Below, one piece after another: positions 3,058-64,000 of a DNA stretch of 64,000 bases (positions within the stretch are counted from its first letter, which is position 1; the number at the start of each line of letters is the position of its first letter). Where the stretch lies: NCBI GenBank assembly GCA_963785725.1, contig CAWAWS010000007.1:299238-363237 (forward strand). The letters run 5' to 3'. Source of the DNA: an uncultured delta proteobacterium. Lineage in GTDB: Bacteria > Myxococcota_A > Polyangia > Palsa-1104. Below the pieces are notes generated by a model. The model did not search any database. It saw nothing but the letters and a program-made list of their open reading frames with translations, and was not told the origin of the DNA. A program made the translations under genes and the position numbers.

Positions 3058-3858
3058 ATGATCGCCTCGCGCGGCGTCGTCCTTCTCGCGTTCTGCCTTT
3101 CACTTTCAGCGTGCATCAAGCCGGCGGTGCGGCCCTACGCGCCACCTTCGGCCGAGCAGCTGCTGGCGTCGCTGCGCGAGCGCGCCGAGAAGGTGCGCAC
3201 GCTGCGCGCAACGGCCAAGATCGACGACGTGGCCAAGGGCGGCCAGCGCGTGCGGGTGAAGGTCGCGCTCTTGGTCGCGCGCGGTGGCAAGCTGCGCTTC
3301 GAGGCCGACAGCCCGCTCGGCGGCTCGCTGGCGACGCTGACGTCGGACGGCGCGCAGTTCTCGCTGCTCGACGTGCGCGCCAACCGCTTCCTGACCGGGC
3401 CGGCCAAAGCGTGCAACGTGGCGCGGCTCATTCGCCTCAATATTTCGCCCGAGGACGTGGGCGCGGTGCTGATGGGCTCGGCGCCGCTGCCGCCCGACGC
3501 GCGCATCAAGAGCGCGGGCTGGGACGCCGACCACGGCGGCCGCGAAGTGTTGACGCTGGCCTTGTCCGACGGCGGCGAAGAGATCATCCAAATGGACGCG
3601 CTCAACAAGACGTGGGACGTGCGCCGCGCCGAGCGTCGCGACAGTGCCGGCAAGGTCTTGTGGCGCGTGACCAACGACGGCTTCAAAGATCGCGACGGCG
3701 GCGTGCGCTCGCCCGAGACATCGGACGTCGAAGAGCCGCCGCACGGCGCTGACGCCGAGATCAAGTTCCGCAACGTCGAGGTCAACGTCGAGCTGCCCGA
3801 CGAGCTGTTCCGCTTGCCGCCGCCGTCGAACCTGACGCCGGAGCCGGCGGACTGCTAG
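3058..3858 (+). CDS. Lipoprotein (LolB/DUF4292-like outer-membrane lipoprotein)
   Basis: Signal peptide plus lipobox LSLSAC, about 266 aa. Family placement is by weak resemblance only. Confidence 0.5.
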   Translation: MIASRGVVLLAFCLSLSACIKPAVRPYAPPSAEQLLASLRERAEKVRTLRATAKIDDVAKGGQRVRVKVALLVARGGKLRFEADSPLGGSLATLTSDGAQFSLLDVRANRFLTGPAKACNVARLIRLNISPEDVGAVLMGSAPLPPDARIKSAGWDADHGGREVLTLALSDGGEEIIQMDALNKTWDVRRAERRDSAGKVLWRVTNDGFKDRDGGVRSPETSDVEEPPHGADAEIKFRNVEVNVELPDELFRLPPPSNLTPEPADC

Positions 3859-8866: not shown

Positions 8867-9676
8867 CTACGGGATCTGCATTCCGCCCGAGACGTTGATC
8901 TCTTGTCCCGTGACGAAATCGGACAGCGGCGACGAGAAGAACAGGACGGCGTTGGCGATGTCCTCGGGCTCACCGAAGCGGCCGAGCGGAATCCGCGTCA
9001 GCATCGCCTGGCGCTGCTCTTCGGGCACGCCCAGCTCGTCGCCCTTTTGCTTGGCGGCGGTCAGGCGCGTGTTCGTGAAGCCGGGCGCGACGGCGTTGAC
9101 GTTGATCCAGAAGCGGCCCCACTCCTGCGCGACCGTGCGCGTGATGCCGACGTTGCCCATCTTGGCGGCCGTGTAATTGACCTGCCCGGGATTGCCGCGG
9201 ATGGCGGCCGTCGAGAAGAAGTTTACGATTTTACGGTGATATTTCGGGCTGCCCGTCTCTTCCAGCTCGCGCTTGGCGACGTCGCGCATAAAAGGAGCGG
9301 CAGAGCGAATGCAGTTGAAGGTGCCCTTCAAGTTGACGTCGATCACCAAATCCCACCAGTCGTCGGACAGCAGGTGGGTCATGCGATCGCGTGTGATTCC
9401 GGCGTTGTTGACGAGAATGTCGAGCTTGCCGAAGGAGTCGACCGCCAGCTTCATGAGCGCGTCGGTGTGGTTGCGCTCGGCGACCGAACCGAGGTGCACG
9501 ACGGCCGAGCCCTTGGCGATTTCCTCACACGCGGCGCGGGCTTCCGCGGCCGGCTCGGCATCGACGTCGTTGATGACGACCTTGGCGCCTTCGCGGACCA
9601 AAGTGAGGGCGCACGCGCGGCCGATGCCGCGACCCGCGCCGGTGACCACAGCCACGCGATCTTCGAGCAAACCCAT
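8867..9676 (-). CDS. SDR-family oxidoreductase (3-oxoacyl-ACP reductase-like)
   Basis: TGAGRGIGRA Rossmann motif, NNAG motif, and a YxxxK-type catalytic region. Confidence 0.85.
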   Translation of the reverse strand: MGLLEDRVAVVTGAGRGIGRACALTLVREGAKVVINDVDAEPAAEARAACEEIAKGSAVVHLGSVAERNHTDALMKLAVDSFGKLDILVNNAGITRDRMTHLLSDDWWDLVIDVNLKGTFNCIRSAAPFMRDVAKRELEETGSPKYHRKIVNFFSTAAIRGNPGQVNYTAAKMGNVGITRTVAQEWGRFWINVNAVAPGFTNTRLTAAKQKGDELGVPEEQRQAMLTRIPLGRFGEPEDIANAVLFFSSPLSDFVTGQEINVSGGMQIP

Positions 9677-53522: not shown

Positions 53523-53702
53523 AAAATCGAAAATTACACAATTGCTACAAATACATGCGATTGCAGGCTTGTGTAACAGTTGGGCACATTTTTGGCCAAT
53601 TCGTGGCCGTCGTTTCGGCGCTCGGCCGCTCACCATTGGTCGAGCCATTCGACGCGTTCTCGACGAGTGACACCTCGCCGAGCGCGTGCTATCGCACTGA
53701 AC

Positions 53703-54410
53703 ATGAGTCGTGCGCCGCTGACGGACTACGAGAAATACATCCGCACCGATGAGCTGTTGGCGCTGCAAAAGCCCGAGGATCAGCTCAGCTGCCACGACGA
53801 GATGCAGTTTCAGGTCGTGCATCAAGTGGCCGAGCTGTGGATGAAGCTGTGCGAGCACGAGCTGACCTTCGCCGCCGCGCGCATGAAAGAGAACGCCGTG
53901 GCGCGCGCGATGCGGGCGCTGGCGCGCGTGCGCGGCATTCAGGTGCTGCTGATGGACCAGCTGGCGCTGCTCGACACGATGGCGCCGCGCGACTACATGA
54001 CCATCCGTAACGCGCTCGGTCGCGGCTCGGGGCAGGAGTCGCCGGGGTTTCGCCGCATGCTGCAGCTGCCGGAAGAGGTGTGGCCGGCGTTCGCGCAGCT
54101 GCTGGAGGCGCGCGGCGTGACGCTGCGGCAGATCTACGAGGCGCCCGACTCGCAGCCGGAGCTGTTCAACCTCGCCGAAGGGCTCATCGACTACGATCAG
54201 AGCCTGCAAGCGTGGCGGATGCGCCATCTGCTCATCGTCTATCGCCAGATCGGCGCGGGGACGCCGTCGCTGAAGGGCAAGGCGTCGGACCTGCTCGCCG
54301 AAGGGCTGAAGCATCGCTTCTTCCCGAAGCTGTGGGACGTCCGCGACGAGCTGTTCGCCGAATGGACGCGCACACACCCATATGGCGCCGAGAAGGGCTA
54401 CCACGGCTGA
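53703..54410 (+). CDS. kynA: Tryptophan 2,3-dioxygenase
   Basis: ...LTDYEKYIRTDELLALQKPEDQLSCHDEMQFQVVHQVAELWMKL..., TDO family. Confidence 0.85.
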   Translation: MSRAPLTDYEKYIRTDELLALQKPEDQLSCHDEMQFQVVHQVAELWMKLCEHELTFAAARMKENAVARAMRALARVRGIQVLLMDQLALLDTMAPRDYMTIRNALGRGSGQESPGFRRMLQLPEEVWPAFAQLLEARGVTLRQIYEAPDSQPELFNLAEGLIDYDQSLQAWRMRHLLIVYRQIGAGTPSLKGKASDLLAEGLKHRFFPKLWDVRDELFAEWTRTHPYGAEKGYHG

Positions 54411-54438
54411 CCGATCCGTGATAGCGCTGAGCGCGACC

Positions 54439-55587
54439 ATGACGGACGATCTCCTCCGCTGGCGCGCCGAATTTCCCGCGCTCGAACGTTCGGTGTACAT
54501 GGTCTCGCATTCGCTCGGCGCGATGCCCAAACGCGCTTACGAGCATCTGCGAGGCTTCGCCGATCTGTGGGTCAACAAGGGCATCAACGCGTGGGATGAT
54601 TGGATCCCCGAGGTCGAGCGCGCGGGCGAGCGCATCGGCCGCATCATCGGCGCGCCCGCCGGCACCGTGGCGATGGCGACGAACGTGTCGCAGATTCAGG
54701 CGCTCGTCGCCAGTTGCCTCGACTACACGCCCGCGCGCAACAAGATCGTCTTCACGGCGCTCAATTTCCCGACGGTGAGCTACGTCTGGCACGAGGAGCG
54801 GCGGCGCGGCGCCGACGTCGTGGTCGTGCCCGGCGGCGACGGCGTGCACGCGCCGATGGACGCGCTCTTGGCGGCGATCGACGAACGCACGCTGATGGTG
54901 CCGATCTCGCACGTGCTCTTCCGCTCGTCGGCGATCAAAGACGTGGCCGCGGTCGTCAAGCGCTGTCAGGAAGTGGGCGCGCTGGTGATGCTCGATTGCT
55001 ATCAGTCGACGGGCACGGTGCCGCTCGACGTGACGGCGCTGGGCGTCGATTTCGCGTGCGGCGGCTCGGTCAAGTGGCTGTGCGGCGGCCCGGGCGCGGC
55101 CTACTTGTACGTGCGGCCCGATCGGATTCCGCAGTTCGCGCCGCGCAACACCGGCTGGTTCGGCAACGTCAAGCCGTTCGCGTTCACGATGCCGGAGCAG
55201 ACCTACGCGCCCAATATTTGGCGTTATATGGCGGGGACGCCGGCGATCGTCGCGCTCTATCAAGCGCGCGCGGGCGCCGAGATCGTGGCCGAGATCGGCG
55301 TCGCCAACATTCGCAAGAAGTCGCTCAGGCAGACGGCGCGCGTGCTGGCGAAGTGCGACGAGCGCGGCTGGAAGGTGAACACGCCGCGCGCCGAAAACGA
55401 GCGCGGCGGCAGCGTCTGCTTCGACTTCGCGGGCAGCGACCAGGTCGCGCGCGGCTTGAATGCGAGCGGCTTTTTGTGCGACTGGCGCCCGCAATCGGGC
55501 ATCCGAATGTCGCCCCATTTTTACACCAGCGACGACGAGGTCGAGCGCTTCCTCGACGAAGTCGCGCGTCTGCAAGGCACCACGTGA
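54439..55587 (+). CDS. kynU: Kynureninase (PLP-dependent)
   Basis: ...FPALERSVYMVSHSLGAMPKRAYEHL...LDCYQSTGTVPLDV...GGSVKWLCGGPG... Confidence 0.85.
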   Translation: MTDDLLRWRAEFPALERSVYMVSHSLGAMPKRAYEHLRGFADLWVNKGINAWDDWIPEVERAGERIGRIIGAPAGTVAMATNVSQIQALVASCLDYTPARNKIVFTALNFPTVSYVWHEERRRGADVVVVPGGDGVHAPMDALLAAIDERTLMVPISHVLFRSSAIKDVAAVVKRCQEVGALVMLDCYQSTGTVPLDVTALGVDFACGGSVKWLCGGPGAAYLYVRPDRIPQFAPRNTGWFGNVKPFAFTMPEQTYAPNIWRYMAGTPAIVALYQARAGAEIVAEIGVANIRKKSLRQTARVLAKCDERGWKVNTPRAENERGGSVCFDFAGSDQVARGLNASGFLCDWRPQSGIRMSPHFYTSDDEVERFLDEVARLQGTT

Positions 55588-55597
55588 GGAACGAACG

Positions 55598-55993
55598 ATG
55601 AATACGCCCATCAATCCGCGCGAGCTCGGCACACCGCGCGGCTACTCCAACGGCATGCTGGCGCCGCCCGGACGCATGCTCGCCATCGCCGGTCAGATCG
55701 GTTGGGACGGCACGGGCAAGCTCGTGTCCGACGACTTCGCGCAGCAGTTCAACCGCGCGCTCGGCAACGTCTTGGCCGTCTTGCACGAGGCCGGCGGCGT
55801 GCCCAGCGATTTGATCACGCTGCGCATTTACGTCGTGGATAAGCAGCGTTATTTGGCGCAAACGAAGGAGATCGGCGCGATCTATCGCGAGCTCATGGGG
55901 ACGCATTATCCGGCGATGGCGCTGCTGCAAGTGGCCGATCTGCTCGAGCCGGGCGCGCAGGTCGAGATCGAAGGGTTGGCGGTGATCTCCTGA
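55598..55993 (+). CDS. RidA/YjgF-family enamine/imine deaminase
   Basis: ...PRGYSNGMLAPPGRMLAIAGQIGWDG...PAMALLQVADLLEPGAQVEIEGLAV. Confidence 0.8.
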   Translation: MNTPINPRELGTPRGYSNGMLAPPGRMLAIAGQIGWDGTGKLVSDDFAQQFNRALGNVLAVLHEAGGVPSDLITLRIYVVDKQRYLAQTKEIGAIYRELMGTHYPAMALLQVADLLEPGAQVEIEGLAVIS

Positions 55994-56787
55994 TCGCGCC
56001 CAAGAGCTTCCGTTATGCCGTCGAGGATCATATTGCGACGATCACGCTCGATCGGCCGGAGACGCTCAATTCGCTGACGTTCGAGGTCTACGCCGAGCTG
56101 CGCGACTGTTTCCGCGCGCTCGAGAACGAAGCCGAGGTGCACGCCATCGTCATCACCGGCGCCGGGCGCGGCTTCTGCAGCGGCGGCAGCGTCAACGACA
56201 TCATCGGCCCCTTGTTCGCCATGTCCGCCGTCGAGCGCATGGCGTTCACGCGCATGACGGGCGATCTCATCGGCGCCATTCGTCAGCTGCGTAAGCCGGT
56301 GGTCGCGGCCATCAACGGCGTCGCGGCGGGCGCGGGCGCGGTCATCGCGCTGGCGTGCGACTTCCGCGTCATGTCGGAGAAGGCGAAAATAGCGTTCCTG
56401 TTCGTCAAGGTCGGGTTGGCGGGCGCGGATATGGGCGCGGCCTGGCTGTTGCCGCAAGTGGTCGGCTTGGCGCGCGCGACCGAGATCTTGATGCTCGGCG
56501 ATCCGGTCGTCGCCGCCGACGCGCTGCGCATCGGTTTGGCCAATCGCGTCGTCGCGCCGGAGCAGGTGGTGACCGAAGCGCGCGGGCTGGCCGAGCGGCT
56601 GGCGCGCGGGCCGCGGTTTGCGCTCGGGATGACGAAGGAGATGTTGAACCGCGAGCCGCAGCTGACGCTGGAGGCGGCGTTGGAAGCGGAAGCGCAGGCG
56701 CAGCAGATCTGCATGGCGACCGAGGATTTCCGCGAGGCGTACGAGGCGTTCACGGGCAAGCGCGAGCCGAAGTTTACCGGGAAGTAG
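55990..56787 (+). CDS. Enoyl-CoA hydratase/isomerase family protein (start codon unclear; no canonical in-frame start)
   Basis: ...ATITLDRPETLNSL...AIVITGAGRGFCSGGSVNDI...AAINGVAAGAGAVIALACDFRV... The frame is open far upstream without ATG/GTG/TTG, which suggests a non-canonical start or a lost start codon. Confidence 0.7.
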   Translation: MIAPKSFRYAVEDHIATITLDRPETLNSLTFEVYAELRDCFRALENEAEVHAIVITGAGRGFCSGGSVNDIIGPLFAMSAVERMAFTRMTGDLIGAIRQLRKPVVAAINGVAAGAGAVIALACDFRVMSEKAKIAFLFVKVGLAGADMGAAWLLPQVVGLARATEILMLGDPVVAADALRIGLANRVVAPEQVVTEARGLAERLARGPRFALGMTKEMLNREPQLTLEAALEAEAQAQQICMATEDFREAYEAFTGKREPKFTGK

Positions 56788-57006
56788 CCCGTCGCCGCGC
56801 GAGGCGTGCGCCGAGTGCAATCGAGCGAGCGTTCTTGTGGCGCACGGCGAGGACGCAACTTTTGGACGGGAACGGCGATAAAGGGGAGGGTGGTCGGGGG
56901 AATTCCATCGAGCCCACCATCCTCCGGACCTGTAGAGCGCGCGCCTCTCGGTATCCATGTGTCGAAGTCGTCGGTAAACGCAATCCATGAGCAACGGAGC
57001 GGGACG

Positions 57007-58119
57007 ATGATCGGCTTCCTCGAAGAGCGGCACATCGCGTTGCGCTATCGCGCGCAGGCTTGGGTCGACGCGGCCGGGCTGGAGAATGACCACGATCCGG
57101 CCGAGCTCGTCGCGCGGCTGGCGCGTCACGAGCTCTTGCGCGCCTGCGTGCCGGCGGCGTACGGCGGCCTGCGCGAGCGCGTCGAATTGCGCGACTTGTG
57201 CGTGCTGCGCGCGGTCATCGGCTATCGATCGTCGCTCGCCGACACGATGTTCGCCATGCAGGGCCTCGGCAGCTATCCGGTGACGCTGGCTGGCACCGAA
57301 GCGCAGAAGCAGGCGCTCTTGCCGTCGGTGGCGAATGGTCAAACCATTTGCGCGTTCGCGATCACCGAGCCGGAAGCGGGCAGCGACGTGTCGAGCGTCA
57401 GCACGCGCGCGGTCCGCGACGGCGATGGCTACGTCATCGACGGCGTCAAATGCTTCATCAGCAACGCCGGGCTCGCGCACTCGTACGTGCTGTTCGCGCG
57501 CACGTCGGACGATCGGCATCGCGGCCTCACGGCGTTCCTCGTCGACGGCAAAGCCAATGGTTTAACCATTACGCCGACCGAGCTCATCGCGCCGCATCCC
57601 ATCGGCACGGTGACGTTGCGCGGCGTGCGCGTGCCGGCGTCGGCGCGCGTGGGCGAGGAGGGCCAAGGCTTTCAGCTGGCGATGGCGACGCTCGATTTCT
57701 TCCGCACGTCGGTGGGCGCGGCGGCGTTGGGCATGGCGGCGCGCGCGCTCGACGAAGCCAAGGCGCGCGTCAAGGCGCGGCGGCAGTTCGGCAAGGCCCT
57801 GAGCGAGTTTCAGGGCACGCAGATCGCGCTCGCCGACATGGCCGTCGACGTCGCGGCGTCGCGGCTGTTGGTGTTCTCGGCGGCGCAGCGCATCGACGGC
57901 GCCGATCAGCCGGGCAGCGTCGACGCGGCGATGGCCAAGCTGTACGCGACGGAGGCGGCGCAGCGCGTCGTCGATCGCGCCGTGCAGCTATTCGGCGGGC
58001 AAGGCGTGGTGGCCGGCTGTATCGTCGAGCGGCTCTATCGGGAAGTGCGCGCGCTCAGAATTTACGAGGGCACGAGCGAGATCCAAAAGCTCGTCATCGC
58101 CAAGGCGCTGCTGCGCTGA
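57007..58119 (+). CDS. Acyl-CoA dehydrogenase
   Basis: ...[21 protein letters not shown]...[10 protein letters not shown]... C-terminal ...[43 protein letters not shown]. Confidence 0.85.
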
Positions 58120-58246
58120 AACGCGCGGTCCACGGGCATTTACGCGACAGTCGACACGCGGCGGGCGCGCAGGGCGGGCGCGCGCATCGGGCGACTGCGC
58201 TCGGCAGCGTGCTCGTCGGGGCGTCCGACGCGACATTCGACGGCAT

Positions 58247-58443
58247 GCATCATCGCTGGTTCGGCGCGGAATGCGACGGCGTGCACTATCGCGCGGTCGG
58301 CGCAGAATGTGACGGCATGCGCCATCGCGTGTTCGGCGCGGAATGCGACGGCATGCGCGATGGCGCGTTCGGCGCGGAATGCGACGGCATGCGCGATGGC
58401 GCGTTCGGCGCGGAATGCGACGGCATGCGCGATGGCGCGTTCG
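58247..58443. repeat. Tandem repeat array, 36-bp unit TTCGGCGCGGAATGCGACGGCATGCGCGATGGCGCG, about 5-6 copies (3 identical, upstream copies diverged)
   Basis: Direct reading of 58247-58443. Intergenic, between the ACAD stop (58119) and the ferredoxin start (58584). Confidence 0.85.
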
Positions 58444-58583
58444 ACGAGCAAGCGACGGCCTATTTGCTGCTCGGCTCGGTCGCGCATCCGACGGGGGCGT
58501 TCGATAGCGCTGTCGCGCTGCGCGGATCGCGATAAATTACAGCTCGCGGCGCTGACGCGTTCGCAAAGGGAATGGTTCAACCA

Positions 58584-58949
58584 ATGCCGCATTACGAGAA
58601 GCACGTCTTCATCTGCACCAACGAGCGCGACAAAGACAACCCGAAGGGCGACTGCGCGCGCCGCGGCTCCGACGACATTCGCGACGCGTTCAAGAAGGGC
58701 ATTCACGAGCGCGGCTTGAAGGGGCGCATGCGTGCCAACGCGGCCGGCTGCCTCGACCAGTGCGCGTTCGGGCCCACCGTCGTCGTCTATCCCGAGCAGG
58801 TTTGGTACTCGGTGCCGACGCGCGCGGACGCCGAGGAGATCATCGAGAAGCACTTGGTCGGCGGTGTTCCCGTCGAGCGGCTGCTGTTGCGCACGAACAA
58901 GGACAAAGAGCAGGACAAAGCCGGCAAGGAAGGCAAAGAGCCCAAATGA
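58584..58949 (+). CDS. Thioredoxin-like [2Fe-2S] ferredoxin-domain protein
   Basis: ...HVFICTNERDKDNPKGDCARRGSDDI...AAGCLDQCAFGPTVVVYPEQVWY... An alternative in-frame ATG at 58572 would give MVQPMPHYEK. The start is embedded in the AATGGTTCAACCAATG motif. Confidence 0.75.
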   Translation: MPHYEKHVFICTNERDKDNPKGDCARRGSDDIRDAFKKGIHERGLKGRMRANAAGCLDQCAFGPTVVVYPEQVWYSVPTRADAEEIIEKHLVGGVPVERLLLRTNKDKEQDKAGKEGKEPK

Positions 58950-59200
58950 AGAAGCCGCAAATTCTCGTCGGTGTGGCCGGGCTGGCGCTCGGTCTGTTGC
59001 TCGGCGGCGCGTTCATCGGTCGCGCGCATGCGCAGCAGCCGGGCGCACGCTTTCAGTACATGTGCCAGACGAAGCTGAACAAAATCTGGACCCCCGAAGC
59101 GCAAGCCAGGCTCAACGAGCTGGGAAGCCAGGGCTGGCAGCTCTTGCCCACGCGCAGCCCAATGAACGAGGACGTCTATTGCTACGAGCGTCGCTTCTGA
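58946..59200 (+). CDS. Small secreted protein (84 aa, signal peptide, 2 Cys)
   Basis: MKKPQILVGVAGLALGLLLGGAFIGRAHA signal. ATGA overlap with the ferredoxin stop. Confidence 0.55.
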   Translation: MKKPQILVGVAGLALGLLLGGAFIGRAHAQQPGARFQYMCQTKLNKIWTPEAQARLNELGSQGWQLLPTRSPMNEDVYCYERRF

Positions 59201-59235
59201 ATGGTTTAACCAATCTTCGGATTGGTTAAACCACT
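59200..59235. repeat. Inverted pair of AATGGTTTAACCAAT-type units separated by CTTCGG (36-bp near-perfect hairpin)
   Basis: AATGGTTTAACCAAT cttcgg ATTGGTTAAACCACT, overlapping the stop (TGA 59198-59200) of the small protein and the 5' region of the OYE gene. Confidence 0.8.
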
Positions 59236-59248
59236 CGTCGCTGCCGTC

Positions 59249-60707
<1,459 letters not shown>

Positions 60708-60724
<17 letters not shown>

Positions 60725-60743
60725 AGGGAATGGTTAAACCAAT
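60708..60743. repeat. Tandem pair of AATGGTT(G/A)AACCAAT units separated by AAAGGG
   Basis: The first unit encodes the C-terminal KWLNQ and contains the TAA stop of the OYE gene. The second contains the ATG (60742) of the CoA-ligase gene. The spacer AAAGGG is a plausible RBS. Confidence 0.8.
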
Positions 60744-62283
60744 GACAACGCCAAGTGAGACGACGTTTCAGCCGCAATTCCCCGAGCAGTTCAACATGGC
60801 GCGCTACTTCCTCGACGCGCGGATCGAAGAGGGGCGCGGCGATCACGTCGCCATCATCGACGACAGCGGGCAGTACACCTATCGCCAGGTGCAAGCGATG
60901 GCGAATCAGGTGGGCAACGCGCTGACGGCGATGGGCGTGGGCGTCGAAGATCGCGTGCTCATCGGGCTCTTCGACAGCGTCGAGTTCGCGGCGGCGTTCT
61001 TCGGCATCTTGAAGATCGGCGCCGTCGTGACGATGGTGAATCCCGAGCTGCCCGACGGCGATTATCAGCACTACCTCGACTACACGCGGGCGCGCGCGCT
61101 CATCGGCGACATTGGTTTGACCAATCGCATTGCGCCCATGATCGAGAGCTCGAAGCTGTTGCGCGGCGTCTTGAGCGCCGGCGGAAATTGGGCGGCGAAG
61201 GTCGGCGGCGCGTCGACGGAGCTCGTGAACTTCGACAGCTCCAAGGACGATCCGTCGGTGTGGCTGTTCACGTCGGGATCGACGGGGAAACCGAAGGGCG
61301 CCGTGCATCTGCAGCATGATTTTGCGTACAACACCGAGTGCTACGCCAAGCCGGTGCTGAAGATGCGCGCCGACGACGTGACGCTCGGCGTGCCCAAGCT
61401 GTTCTTCGGCTACGCGACGGGCAGCGACTTGATGTTCCCGTTTGCCGTCGGTGCGACGGCCGTGTTGTTTCGCGAGCGGGCGACGCCGGAGAAGGTGCTC
61501 GAGCTGTGCGCCAAGCACCAGGTCACGGTGCTGACGAGCGTGCCGACGATGATCAACAAGATGGTGCAGGCGGTGGGCGGCAAGCGTTCGCTGGCGCCGT
61601 TGCGCGCGGTGATTTCGGCGGGTGAGGCGCTGCCGGCCGAGCTCTATCACCGCTGGATGGAGACGTTCGGCGTCGAGATCCTCGACGGTATCGGGTCCGC
61701 CGAGCTGTTCCATATTTACATCACGAATCGACCGGGCGAGGCCAAGCCGGGGTCGCTCGGGCGCATCGTGCCCGGCTACGAGGCGAAGATCGTCGGCGCC
61801 GACGGCAACGTCGTCCCCGACGGTGAAATCGGCACGCTGTGGGTCAAGGGCGACTCGGCGGCGATCTGCTATTGGCAGGCGCACGAGAAGTCCAAAGAGG
61901 TGTTGCGCGGCGATTGGGTCGTGTCGGGAGACCTGTTTCGGCGCGACGGTGAGGGCTACTATTATTATGCCGGCCGCGCCGACGACATGCTGAAAGTGGG
62001 CGGCATTTGGGTGTCGCCGCTGGAGGTGGAGTCGTGTTTGCTGCGGCATCCGAACGTGCTGGAGGCGGCGGTCGTCGGCTACGAGGATGACGACGGGCTG
62101 GTGAAGTCGTTGGCGTTCGTGGTTCTGCGGGATGCGACGGCGTCGGACGAGCTGGCGCGCGGGATTATCGAGCACGCCAAGAGTCAGCTCGTGCATTACA
62201 AGGCGCCGCGGAAGGTGGAGTTCGTGGCGGCGCTGCCGCGGAGTGACCGGGGGAAGATCCTGCGGCGCGAGCTGCGGACGTGA
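60742..62283 (+). CDS. Benzoate-CoA-ligase-family aryl-CoA ligase (candidate anthranilate/2-aminobenzoate-CoA ligase)
   Basis: ...ARYFLDARIEEGRGDHVAII... AMP-binding motif LFTSGSTGKPKGAVH, ...GYGATG-like YATGSD, and a C-terminal ...HYKAPRKVEFVAALPRSDRGKILRREL. Confidence 0.85.
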   Translation: MTTPSETTFQPQFPEQFNMARYFLDARIEEGRGDHVAIIDDSGQYTYRQVQAMANQVGNALTAMGVGVEDRVLIGLFDSVEFAAAFFGILKIGAVVTMVNPELPDGDYQHYLDYTRARALIGDIGLTNRIAPMIESSKLLRGVLSAGGNWAAKVGGASTELVNFDSSKDDPSVWLFTSGSTGKPKGAVHLQHDFAYNTECYAKPVLKMRADDVTLGVPKLFFGYATGSDLMFPFAVGATAVLFRERATPEKVLELCAKHQVTVLTSVPTMINKMVQAVGGKRSLAPLRAVISAGEALPAELYHRWMETFGVEILDGIGSAELFHIYITNRPGEAKPGSLGRIVPGYEAKIVGADGNVVPDGEIGTLWVKGDSAAICYWQAHEKSKEVLRGDWVVSGDLFRRDGEGYYYYAGRADDMLKVGGIWVSPLEVESCLLRHPNVLEAAVVGYEDDDGLVKSLAFVVLRDATASDELARGIIEHAKSQLVHYKAPRKVEFVAALPRSDRGKILRRELRT

Positions 62284-62776
62284 CGGCGGCGGGCGCGGGG
62301 TTCGCGGCGGGCGCGGGGTTCGCGCGAGGCGCTCGGGGCGCGACGTTGGCGGCGGATGAGGCGACGTGCGCGATGTTCGCAACAGGCGAGACGACGTGCG
62401 CGATATTCGCGGCGGCTGGCGCGATGTTCGCGACATGCGAGGCTCGGGGCGCGACGTTGGCGGCGGATGAGGCGACGTGCGCGATGTTGGCGGCAGGCGA
62501 AATGACGCGCGCGATATCCGCGGCGGCTACGGCCATGGGCATGTTGTTCGCGGCTGGCGAAACAACGAGCGCGACGTTCGCGATGTTCGCGTCCCGGCAA
62601 CCGACGGTCGCGATGGTCGCGGCAGGGGAGTTCGCGCGAGGCGGCGCGGCCGTCATGTTGGGCGCGGAGCAGGCGCTCGAAGGCGCGTCGGCGACGCGCG
62701 CCGACGGTGCGTTCGCGAGGCGCGCGACCGCGCAATGCGCGTCGGCGACGCGCGCGACCACCGCTCGAGCCGACGC
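62284..62776. repeat. Degenerate tandem repeat region (about 30-33-bp period, core ...GACGTGCGCGAT(G/A)TTCGCG...), including a 46-bp exact duplication
   Basis: CTCGGGGCGCGACGTTGGCGGCGGATGAGGCGACGTGCGCGATGTT occurs twice (about 62330 and about 62441), and there are many TGCGCGATGTTCGC / CGCGATATTCGC variants. Intergenic, between the CoA ligase and the creatininase-family gene. Confidence 0.7.
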
Positions 62777-63535
62777 GTGAGGCGCCTCGGCGAGCTGACC
62801 TGGCCCGAAGCCGAAGCCCTGCGCGCGCGCGAGCCGATCATGCTCGTGCCGATCGGCTCCACCGAGGCGCACGGCCCGCACTTGCCGCTGGCCACCGACA
62901 CTATCTTGTCCGACGAGCTGGCGCTGCGCGCCGCCGCTGCGCTCGAAGCCGACGGATACGCCGCCGTCATCGCGCCCGCGCTCGCCTACGCCATCACCGA
63001 CTATGCCGGCGATTTCCCGGGCACGATCTCGCTGACCGCTGCGACCGCCGTCGCAGTTTTATCGGACATCTGCAGCTCGCTCATCGGTCGCGGCTGGCGT
63101 CGCGTCTGCCTCGTCAACAGCCACCTCGAGCCGGCGCACGTGACGTCGCTGAAGGACGCTTGCGCGCAGGCGTTCGCGCGCACCGGCGTCAACGTCGCGT
63201 TCGCCGATCAGCTCGATCGGCGCTGGGCGCGCACGCTGACCGACGAGTTCAAGCGCGGCGCCTGCCACGCGGGAAGCTACGAGACGTCGCTGGTGCTGGC
63301 GGCGCGACCGGAGCTCGTACGCGACGAGCTGCGCCGCGGATTAGTGGTTAAACCAATCGACCTGGCCAAGGCGATGCGCGAAGGCAAGCGGACGTTCATC
63401 GAGGCCGGCGCCGACCAGGCGTACTTCGGCGACCCGGCGGGCGCTACGGTTGAAGAGGGCAACGACATCTACGCGCGGCTGGTGGTCATGGTCGTCGAGA
63501 CCGTGCGCGCCGCGTGGCCAATCGAGAATGGTTAA
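62777..63535 (+). CDS. Creatininase-family amidohydrolase (start GTG 62777 or ATG 62735)
   Basis: ...LGELTWPEAEALRAREPIMLVPIGSTEAHGPHLPLATDTIL... ...GACHAGSYETSLVLA..., typical creatinine amidohydrolase / ArfB / MftE fold motifs. Confidence 0.75.
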   Translation: MRRLGELTWPEAEALRAREPIMLVPIGSTEAHGPHLPLATDTILSDELALRAAAALEADGYAAVIAPALAYAITDYAGDFPGTISLTAATAVAVLSDICSSLIGRGWRRVCLVNSHLEPAHVTSLKDACAQAFARTGVNVAFADQLDRRWARTLTDEFKRGACHAGSYETSLVLAARPELVRDELRRGLVVKPIDLAKAMREGKRTFIEAGADQAYFGDPAGATVEEGNDIYARLVVMVVETVRAAWPIENG

Positions 63536-63562
63536 ACCAATTTCGAAATTGGTTTAACCATT
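63527..63562. repeat. Perfect 36-bp palindrome AATGGTTAAACCAATTTCGAAATTGGTTTAACCATT
   Basis: The reverse complement is identical to the forward sequence. It overlaps the last codons (ENG) and the TAA stop (63533-63535) of the creatininase-family gene. Confidence 0.9.
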
Positions 63563-64000
63563 CAGTGGGCGTTCGCGCGACCGACTTCGGAAGCGATCCA
63601 CGTCGAGCGACGAAATCGATGCGCGAGCCTGCTTCCTCCACGTTCAATCGACGATGGGTGAAGTCGAGGTCGACGCGCCCGAGATGGGTCGGATAGTTCG
63701 TCTCGGCGTATCGACCTGTCTCGGCGTATCGATCGGACTCAACACGCCGATTCGGTATCGGCTGGGAACGCCAGACGGTGGGAACGCCGACGGAATGCCG
63801 AGACGGGTCGGCACGTCATGAGAGACATGCGGCGAGGCGGGGCTTTAAGTTTCAGCCGGGGCCGGCGCGACGGACCGATTCGGTGTGGCGAGACAGCCGA
63901 ATTCGGTGCGGGCAGATTCGACGCAACCAACTCATCGGCGCTACCAACTCATCGGCACGTTGACACCGATCGGGCAGCCGTAATGGAGTCCGTGCGCCGA

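Follow-up and report, generated by a model that had tools for sequence, protein, structure and literature searches.

Operators of the FadR subfamily of GntR-type regulators are A/T-rich palindromes built from TKGT and ACMA boxes (T(G/T)GT...AC(A/C)A), with 3 nt between GT and AC (PMC4494728), and the box of PdhR, the pyruvate-sensing repressor of Escherichia coli that belongs to this subfamily, is (A)ATTGGTnnnACCAAT(T), i.e., (A)ATTGGT-N3-ACCAAT(T) (PMC7660256). In Mycobacterium tuberculosis, the gene of the FadR-like repressor Rv0494 starts with TTG-GTT-GAG-CCA-ATG within ATTGGTTGAGCCAAT, just after a TATATT-like box, and its start region, CACTATATTGGTTGAGCCAATGAAC, has the annotated TTG start within an operator-like 15-mer (supplement of PMC4301838). 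Here, we describe a family of A/T-rich palindromic 15-mers of closely similar geometry in a 64,000-nucleotide stretch of DNA from an uncultured member of the Polyangia (Myxococcota), hereafter the window, where they are distributed through a cluster of catabolic genes. The comparison of this locus with its relatives makes it very likely, in our judgment, that the 15-mers are operators for a GntR/FadR-subfamily regulator, composed of a winged helix and an all-helical FCD domain, whose gene lies outside the window.

Results and discussion

Form and abundance of the motif

A preliminary description of this DNA had reported a family of A/T-rich quasi-palindromic 15-mers in an aromatic-catabolism cluster and had likened their core, TGGTTnAACCA, to GntR/FadR-type operators. 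Both points held up: every copy listed there was found again, with coordinates correct to within 1 to 2 nt, four weaker copies were added (53635, 56530, 57334 and 61111), and the family came to 14 sites against a chance expectation of about zero. These 14 sites are of one palindrome type, the core TGGTTNAACCA flanked as A(A/T)TGGTTNAACCA(A/T)T, and they match at least 11 of the 14 specified bases, which was the cut-off applied when 15-mers were scored against AWTGGTTNAACCAWT. All of them lie within 53635-63562, and no site reaching this score was found in the first 53 kb of the window. The exact pattern AATGGTTNAACCAWT gave 8 strand matches at 7 positions, where 0.00 were expected from shuffled sequences, and TGGTTNAACCA with at most one mismatch occurred at 13 positions, all within 57336-63560, compared with a shuffle expectation of 0.32 and a shuffle maximum of 3. 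Since the window is ~67% GC, A/T-rich 15-mers are conspicuous in it, and in the decorated region they reach a density of about 1 site per 0.7 kb.

The 14 window sites, together with more than 150 sites in relatives, yield the consensus A-W-TGGT-TNA-ACCA-W-T. Written as A-W-TGGTT-N-AACCA-W-T, it is a true palindrome, with A or T at positions 2 and 14, and not a directional unit. Its geometry, TGGT-N3-ACCA, is that by which FadR-subfamily operators are defined (PMC4494728, PMC7660256), and its half-site is near-identical to that of the PdhR box. Three pairs of sites in the window, 59200/59221, 60708/60729 and 63527/63548, share a 21-bp period.

A regulator gene adjoining the motif in other genomes

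The pair pattern TGGTTNAACCAWT-N6-AWTGGTTNAACCA was scanned over 185,579 genomes, one per species, and was found at just 22 loci. These belong to Polyangia/Myxococcales metagenome-assembled genomes (MAGs; 69-71% GC), which have many additional single sites, to Desulfosarcina and other deltaproteobacterial MAGs (~55% GC), which have the pair alone, and to one Aliiroseovarius genome. When the open reading frames (ORFs) of the pair loci were clustered, the commonest family, present in 13 loci, was a protein of 240-270 aa that starts at or beside the pair; the members of this family are GntR+FCD proteins (PF00392+PF07729), and no other DNA-binding gene was conserved alongside the pair. A database search with the Polyangia regulator returned 661 relatives containing PF00392 (GntR) and PF07729 (FCD), named FadR-family or PdhR-like by their sources (PdhR-like being the IMG label), and the best matches of the regulator among solved structures were the N-terminal domain of Rv0494, 7c7e (DgoR-like), 6az6, PdhR, FadR and NanR.

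Ten loci of relatives (L006, L008, L016, L019, L022, L024, L025, L026, L031 and L039) share a conserved arrangement, which reads MBL hydrolase (-), PALP enzyme (-), operator pair, GntR regulator (+), GMC oxidoreductase (+), small WXXGXW protein (+), creatininase (-), CoA ligase (-) and Old Yellow Enzyme (OYE; -), continuing with the small ORF, the ferredoxin-like protein, acyl-CoA dehydrogenase (ACAD), enoyl-CoA hydratase (ECH), RidA, kynureninase and tryptophan 2,3-dioxygenase (TDO). The GntR+FCD regulator was located inside the orthologous cluster in nine of them (all but L022), and in at least six relatives its gene lies ~2.7 kb past the creatininase gene. Neighbouring sites in high-GC loci are 19-22 bp apart in 42 of 46 cases and 29-32 bp apart in 4 of 46, with no other spacing among these 46 pairs, and the distances therefore correspond to two or three helical turns; the 39 spacers of pairs set at 20-21 bp are all different.

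Some features of individual loci are worth recording. L024 and L025, which were obtained via two regulator homologues and are ~81% identical in DNA to the window cluster, are carried on ENA contigs of 564 kb and 279 kb, on which the cluster genes are broken into many short ORFs and the regulators are called as 332 or 397 aa with the GntR domain alone; the split ORFs are probably frameshift errors of long-read assemblies, not pseudogenes. In L039, the regulator of which is 56% identical, 16 sites occur in 12.5 kb, including triple operator arrays at 1717-1770 and 9474-9528 with a 20-bp rather than a 21-bp period and further pairs at 3771/3791, 6606/6626 and 12227/12247.

Motif-independent test and the regulator promoter

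In a motif-blind test, metagenome loci were fetched by conserved regulator peptides alone. The pair was carried by 13 of the 15 loci selected in this way (at least 48% best-segment identity, upstream DNA present), with both of its sites perfect or nearly so and placed at -22 (or -21) and -1 from the start codon. The other two loci differ at the N-terminus of the protein and probably represent another subfamily. Of the more distant regulators (30-47% identity), whose genomes span 40-73% GC, about half are still preceded by a TGGTTNAACCA-type site at a distance of at most 40 nt. On the strength of this test, the motif tracks the regulator clade and not the taxon or the pathway. In Desulfosarcina and the other deltaproteobacterial MAGs (eleven loci), AATGGTTWAACCATT occurs twice with a 21-bp period and precedes a GntR+FCD gene whose product is 33-45% identical to the Polyangia regulator, the neighbours there being P5C reductase, a 2Fe-2S/FAD oxidoreductase and a DAO-family oxidase (opine-oxidase-like genes); since the same pair stands beside different neighbours, the DNA specificity appears to be the same and the regulon different.

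The arrangement TTGAC(C/G)-N10-13-Op1-N6(5)-Op2, in which Op1 and Op2 are the two sites of the pair, was present in 19 of 19 aligned regulator promoter regions. With the -35 element 10-13 nt before Op1, the -10 region would fall inside Op1 and transcription would start at or just before the ATG; the regulator gene is probably leaderless or near-leaderless and, judging from the position of the sites, would be autorepressed. Op2 of the regulator reads A-ATG-GTT-AAA-CCA-AT, where the ATG is the start codon, and the protein begins with MVKPI. The N-terminus MV[KEQ]P, a translation of ATGGTTNAACCA, is found in 24 of 33 homologues, and in 2 more it follows 2-3 extra residues.

Sites at gene junctions in the window

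Positional conservation was judged from a multiple alignment of the clusters at ~81% nucleotide identity. This comparison with orthologous clusters, which the preliminary description had proposed, found the motif conserved in the clusters of relatives, with several sites at orthologous positions; neither orthologous clusters devoid of the motif nor a uniform genome-wide spread was observed.

The predicted operator pair at 60708..60743 (21-bp period, spacer AAAGGG) extends over the OYE stop codon (TAA 60722-60724) and the start of the CoA-ligase gene (ATG 60730 or 60742) and is kept in 5 of 5 genomes that hold the OYE/ligase junction. Between the stop codon of the small ORF and the OYE start at 59249, there is a predicted inverted pair (59200..59235; 21-bp period, spacer CTTCGG), the first base of which is touched by the small-ORF TGA (59198-59200); its Op2 is kept in L024, L025 and L022 and its Op1 in L022, and overall the Op2 upstream of OYE is kept in 4 of 4. 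The predicted single operator AATGGTTCAACCAAT (58571..58585) abuts the start of the ferredoxin-like gene and is kept in 3 of 3 genomes, in one of them in degenerate form. At the distal end of the cluster, a predicted pair forming a perfect 36-bp palindrome (63527..63562; spacer TTCGAA) holds the creatininase TAA (63533-63535); it is window-specific and is situated at the edge where homology to relatives stops. The weak operator-like site ATTGGTCGAGCCATT (12/14; 53635..53649) lies at the 5' end of the TDO ORF, and L022 has a full pair immediately upstream of its TDO gene, this being one of the L022-specific pairs along with those in the TDO/kynureninase and RidA/ECH gaps.

The preliminary description had further proposed that an initiation region shared by the ferredoxin-like and CoA-ligase genes would allow both proteins to begin with MV(Q/K)PM. 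The ferredoxin-like protein is unlikely to begin in this way: the site contains two in-frame ATGs, 58572 and 58584, but L024 and L025 read ATTGGTT..CCAATG at this place, without the 5' ATG and with the 3' ATG alone kept, and ATG 58584 is the likely start. For the ligase, both ATGs are conserved, and the gene caller picks the 3' ATG (60742). OYE in L022 likewise has ATTGG and no 5' ATG, its start being kept at the 3' edge of the site. We regard the idea as largely wrong for the two catabolic genes, and MVKP N-termini do occur, namely in the regulator. As far as the sequences can be read, the operator would end at the start codon in catabolic genes and begin at the start codon in the regulator gene.

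Sites within coding sequences

The most regularly placed intragenic site, AGTGGTTAAACCAAT (13/14; 63343..63357), codes for (L)VVKPI in the creatininase-family gene and is present at the orthologous position of all six genomes compared, each of which uses the codons AAA and CCA there; the probability of its codons, given the peptide, is 4e-7. Two sites are found in the ACAD gene: AATGGTTTAACCATT (14/14; 57556..57570), coding for NGLTI with a TTA codon (codon probability 7e-6), has weaker orthologous copies in L024 and L022, and AATGGTCAAACCATT (13/14; 57334..57348), coding for NGQTI (codon probability given the peptide 2e-4), is kept in L025 and weaker in L024. The ECH gene contains the degenerate site ATCGGTTTGGCCAAT (11/14; 56530..56544), the orthologous counterpart of which is a strong site in both L024 and L025. 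On the whole, the ACAD and ECH intragenic sites are partly kept. The site AATGGTTGAACCAAG (13/14; 59796..59810), coding for QWLNQ in the OYE gene, is window-specific and missing from five orthologues, and ATTGGTTTGACCAAT (13/14; 61111..61125) in the CoA-ligase gene is essentially window-specific. In relatives, an intragenic site in the GMC oxidoreductase gene is kept in 5 of 6, and a ligase-internal site is specific to L016 and L024. There, the sequence is TTGGTTAAACCATTG (TTG-GTT-AAA-CCA-TTG) in L016 and, in the window, CTGGTGAAGTCGTTG (CTG-GTG-AAG-TCG-TTG), which specify an identical peptide save one P/S change, and sites therefore arise by codon substitution and not by insertion. In the window, TTA accounts for 0.7% of Leu codons, CCA for 2.8% of Pro, GTT for 2.8% of Val and AAA for 18% of Lys, and we read the improbable codons at intragenic sites as the signature of selection on a DNA signal over coding sequence.

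The host gene cluster

The identities of the window genes were checked by Pfam, and all of the cluster genes listed here are on the + strand. Pfam matches support TDO (53580), kynureninase (class V aminotransferase fold plus KYNU_C; 54382), RidA (55598), ECH (55996), ACAD (57007), the OYE-family flavoprotein (59249), the AMP-forming CoA ligase (60742) and the creatininase-family hydrolase (62780). The small ferredoxin-like protein (58584) is without a Pfam match, and an 83-aa protein (58949) has what by eye is a hydrophobic, signal-peptide-like N-terminus. As TDO and kynureninase lie upstream, the gene content identifies a tryptophan/kynurenine/anthranilate-CoA cluster, with the predicted route tryptophan to kynurenine to anthranilate to aryl-CoA degradation, and the sites coincide exactly with this cluster in the window. 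In exact-protein look-ups (the ligase with two starts, creatininase, OYE, ACAD and the small ORF), the sole match was a 2.4-kb Logan contig, for the ligase.

Two spacers in the cluster are filled with GC-rich tandem repeats: 58238-58459 in the 465-nt spacer between ACAD and the ferredoxin-like gene (36-bp unit, 6.2 copies) and 62286-62755 in the 497-nt spacer between ligase and creatininase (periods of 18, 30, 51 and 60 bp). In relatives, the same two gene pairs are ~80 nt apart or abutting, and the repeat-filled spacers therefore look like lineage-specific expansions. In ECH, homology starts at 55996, yet the first in-frame ATG, GTG or TTG is at 56137, which implies either a noncanonical start (CTG 55990 or ATC 55993, overlapping the RidA TGA at 55991-55993) or a sequence error. 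At the end of the window, the tail (63563-64000) contains short tandem repeats with 16-17-bp units at 63763-63793 and 63918-63956; since this tail has no homology to the genes that follow creatininase in relatives, a rearrangement breakpoint at the 63527-63562 palindrome is suggested.

The regulator and its proposed mode of action

The suggestion of the preliminary description that the 15-mers are operators for an unseen GntR/FadR-type regulator gains support from the GntR+FCD gene in the clusters of relatives and from its start codon inside a pair of 15-mers. Several observations weigh against this assignment: (i) it is drawn from co-occurrence and analogy; (ii) tblastn of three regulators against the window showed that it encodes no regulator homologue, and a cognate GntR+FCD gene with sites at its own promoter was found in relatives only; (iii) only 465 nt of the window follow the creatininase gene, and the tail of the window has no homology to the downstream DNA of relatives except for the palindrome itself, so that the position of the regulator gene in this genome may differ from that in relatives; (iv) scanning 53-64 kb for the sigma-70 consensus yielded 0 promoter-like sites, none beside the catabolic sites, although the scan, having found none anywhere in this region, is uninformative on transcription starts; (v) roughly one site in two is located within a gene or at the 3' end of one, a placement not typical of simple promoter operators; (vi) in relatives, pairs are also found near sulfatase, M1 peptidase and UvrD genes, unrelated to aromatic catabolism; and (vii) the strongest motif of Rv0494 in chromatin immunoprecipitation (ChIP) is a different 17-mer, GGTCGAG-N3-CTCGACC.

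If the 15-mers are operators of this regulator, each palindrome would bind one regulator dimer, and sites 20-21 bp apart, i.e., at two helical turns, would allow two or three dimers to sit along the same face of the helix, where they would probably bind cooperatively. At the regulator promoter, Op1 would cover the -10 region and Op2 the transcription start and the ATG, resulting in autorepression. In the catabolic genes, sites at the ferredoxin-like, OYE and CoA-ligase starts may block initiation or act as a roadblock; we infer this action at gene junctions, since no promoter is detectable at the catabolic sites. Auxiliary sites within genes could raise local occupancy or allow looping. The protein would act as a repressor, and derepression would most likely be brought about by a pathway metabolite; the analogy with FadR and Rv0494 makes a CoA thioester (e.g., 2-aminobenzoyl-CoA) the probable inducer, and kynurenine or anthranilate would be the alternatives.

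As pairs occur at unrelated loci, the regulon, or a set of paralogues sharing the same specificity, may exceed one pathway. These separate pair loci comprise sulfatase, lipid A acyltransferase, M1 aminopeptidase/S1 and UvrD neighbourhoods. In L025 (372-7547), L009 (1685-5932) and probably L011, the sites run on into flanking genes, among them LysM/SLT, pseudouridine synthase, PatA_N/DUF4388, Ser/Thr kinase, PP2C and HAD hydrolase genes, where they often start right after the TGA stop codon (tgaAWTGGTT). The overall picture suggested by the distribution of sites is of a transcription factor with one densely decorated home cluster and some remote targets, and not of a dispersed repeat.

A bolder extension, which we put forward tentatively and consider rather unlikely to hold in full, is that the sites form a cluster-wide repressor scaffold in which the operator doubles as a leaderless or near-leaderless translation start, a fusion that would be conserved from Myxococcota to Mycobacterium. 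According to this proposal, ~1 site per kb over 10-30 kb, with phased pairs and triplets at nearly all gene junctions and auxiliary operators in coding sequence held against a strong codon bias, would be bridged or looped by FadR-type dimers, silencing the catabolic island until a CoA-ester inducer appears; the ATG would be placed at the 5' edge of the site in the regulator (MV[KEQ]P) and at its 3' edge in catabolic genes.

Alternative explanations

The assignment to a GntR/FadR-subfamily regulator was weighed against three alternatives. In the first, the sites are bound by another DNA-binding protein, either of a different transcription factor family or of a nucleoid or partition type, and the GntR gene is a coregulated passenger. 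The density of about 1 site per 0.7 kb, the many intragenic sites, the A/T-rich character of the sites in a 67% GC genome and their reach into flanking kinase, phosphatase and LysM genes in L025, L009 and L011 would fit such a protein, and density, intragenic placement and spread together recall clustered nucleation sites. The half-site and spacing, however, are of the FadR-subfamily type, the pair follows the GntR gene in distant lineages with wholly different neighbours (Desulfosarcina; metagenomes of 40-73% GC), no other conserved DNA-binding gene co-occurs with it, and the overlap of operator and start codon reaches as far as Rv0494 of M. tuberculosis. We consider this alternative very improbable. 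A parS- or nucleoid-type nucleation cluster, which the site density had brought to mind, was rejected, as the motif tracks one GntR clade across unrelated neighbourhoods.

A second alternative, to which we likewise assign a very low probability, is an element acting at the RNA level, with hairpins that control translation initiation, mRNA stability or termination, for instance through a Shine-Dalgarno-like spacer in the loop or as a cUUCGg-capped stabiliser at a gene 3' end. Folding of 59200-59235, for which the preliminary description had expected a very stable hairpin, and of 63527-63562 did give very stable RNAs for these two inverted pairs (-24.1 and -26.7 kcal/mol, z ~-6), several sites abut starts with purine-rich spacers (AAAGGG, GAAAGG and GAACGG), and complementary central bases are found in 20 of the 39 paired units, against 13 expected. 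Any two adjacent palindromes can pair, however, and we therefore judge this stability to be a by-product of palindromy. For the best-conserved pair (ligase start; z -0.4) and the lone site beside the ferredoxin-like gene (z +0.5), folding does not exceed that of shuffled sequences, spacers and loops are not conserved, central mismatches are present in 15 of the 39 paired units, and the excess of complementarity is due mostly to regulator-promoter pairs that are phylogenetically redundant. Neither 59235 nor 63562 is followed by a T-run, and the fixed 20-21-bp phasing, the site upstream of the -10 region of the regulator and the co-occurrence of the sites with one DNA-binding protein family all fit recognition at the DNA level. 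Binding of protein to one face of the DNA would explain both the spacing and the folding data, and RNA structure would not; the mRNA structural or translational-control element entertained in the preliminary description was not borne out, since single sites and the tandem pair behave like shuffles.

Two more specific classes of RNA element were considered. An intrinsic (Rho-independent) terminator was ruled out, the stems being A/T-rich and lacking a following T-run, and neither hairpin was listed by a terminator scan. For a structured regulatory RNA (riboswitch, leader or translational operator), folding of the ligase-start pair and the single sites was at the shuffle level and consistent covariation was lacking; the central and W positions of paired units showed no consistent covariation and the spacers are free, no Rfam search having been made.

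The third alternative, a mobile palindromic repeat of the repetitive extragenic palindromic (REP) or miniature inverted-repeat transposable element (MITE) kind that seeds gene boundaries and has no dedicated regulator, which was also raised in the preliminary description, is scarcely credible, since the window-specific 36-bp palindrome and 59796 and 61111 sites (all missing in relatives), the frequent location of sites right after stop codons in packed operons and the pairs at several unrelated loci in relatives are set against 0 copies in the remaining 53 kb of the window, an exact pair confined to 22 loci in 185,579 genomes (5 in ~4.3 Mb of MAG CAWFMP01), 6-7 intragenic copies that are in frame, at orthologous positions and made by synonymous changes rather than insertions, conservation across phyla only beside one regulator family, and a 15-bp unit without terminal repeats or target duplications.

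Significance

The element itself is ordinary, being an uncharacterised example of a well-known kind of operator, and nothing known about GntR regulators is overturned by our results. What is noteworthy is how densely the sites are set, that they are conserved within coding sequences, and the fusion of operator and start codon, which gives the MVKP N-terminus and recurs in Rv0494. A regulator family, an operator consensus and a probable regulon can now be assigned to an uncharacterised CoA-dependent tryptophan/kynurenine/anthranilate cluster, in uncultured Polyangia (Myxococcota) for which there are almost no experimentally defined transcription-factor regulons, and the motif is sharp enough for direct regulon prediction. 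The rare TTA, CCA, GTT and AAA codons retained at orthologous positions point to selection on a DNA signal in coding sequence.

Comparison with known systems

Searches of the literature for the exact core sequences returned unrelated primer or gene matches alone, and a search for a GntR regulator of kynurenine/anthranilate genes gave nothing relevant. Among described regulators, E. coli PdhR has the same half-sites and spacing and the same domain pair as the regulator clade studied here, is among its structure matches (9jpj, 5kvr) and is autoregulated via a site at its own gene, as the clade would be from the position of its sites. Outside the helix-turn-helix the similarity is weak, with an E value for 9jpj of 2e-10 for a single sequence and 7e-17 for the family profile. 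Unlike in the PdhR box, the central triplet is limited to TNA, the targets are a tryptophan/anthranilate-CoA cluster instead of pyruvate dehydrogenase, and the sites stand in phased pairs or triplets and within genes. E. coli FadR shares the TGGT-N3-ACCA geometry, with the site read by a dimeric winged-helix protein, and the profile of the regulator aligns through the FadR linker and C-terminal domain; its release from DNA by a CoA-thioester effector would fit a pathway that proceeds via CoA esters. FadR differs in having single promoter operators, a gene that is not beside its targets and low sequence identity, and Pfam assigns FCD (PF07729) to the regulator here, unlike to FadR.

Auxiliary intragenic operators are a feature of classical repressors, such as lac O2 in lacZ and gal OI in galE. 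The likeness lies in extra operators that are placed in coding sequence near promoter operators and kept alongside the protein code, whereas the sites here are many more, with 6-7 intragenic ones in 10 kb.

Rv0494, a regulator of another phylum with other targets (Rv3094c-Rv3095; fatty-acid metabolism), has a start of the same design, the comparison being based on start design and profile match. The chimera containing its N-terminal domain, 9wfi, was the best profile match among solved chains (E 2e-22). Rv0494 is described as an acyl-CoA-responsive, autoregulated FadR-like repressor; it binds the 9-mer GGtTGAgCC, a secondary ChIP motif that matches the core found here, and its 77 sites lie inside and outside promoters, a likeness to the array described here. 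Its N-terminus, MVEPM (protein sequence taken from PDB 9wfi), is coded by ATTGGTTGAGCCAATG, an operator-like 15-mer over the start codon, as in the Polyangia regulators. A regulator family whose N-terminus is the translation of its own operator would thus have this arrangement in common with Rv0494, the intragenic binding of which had been puzzling.

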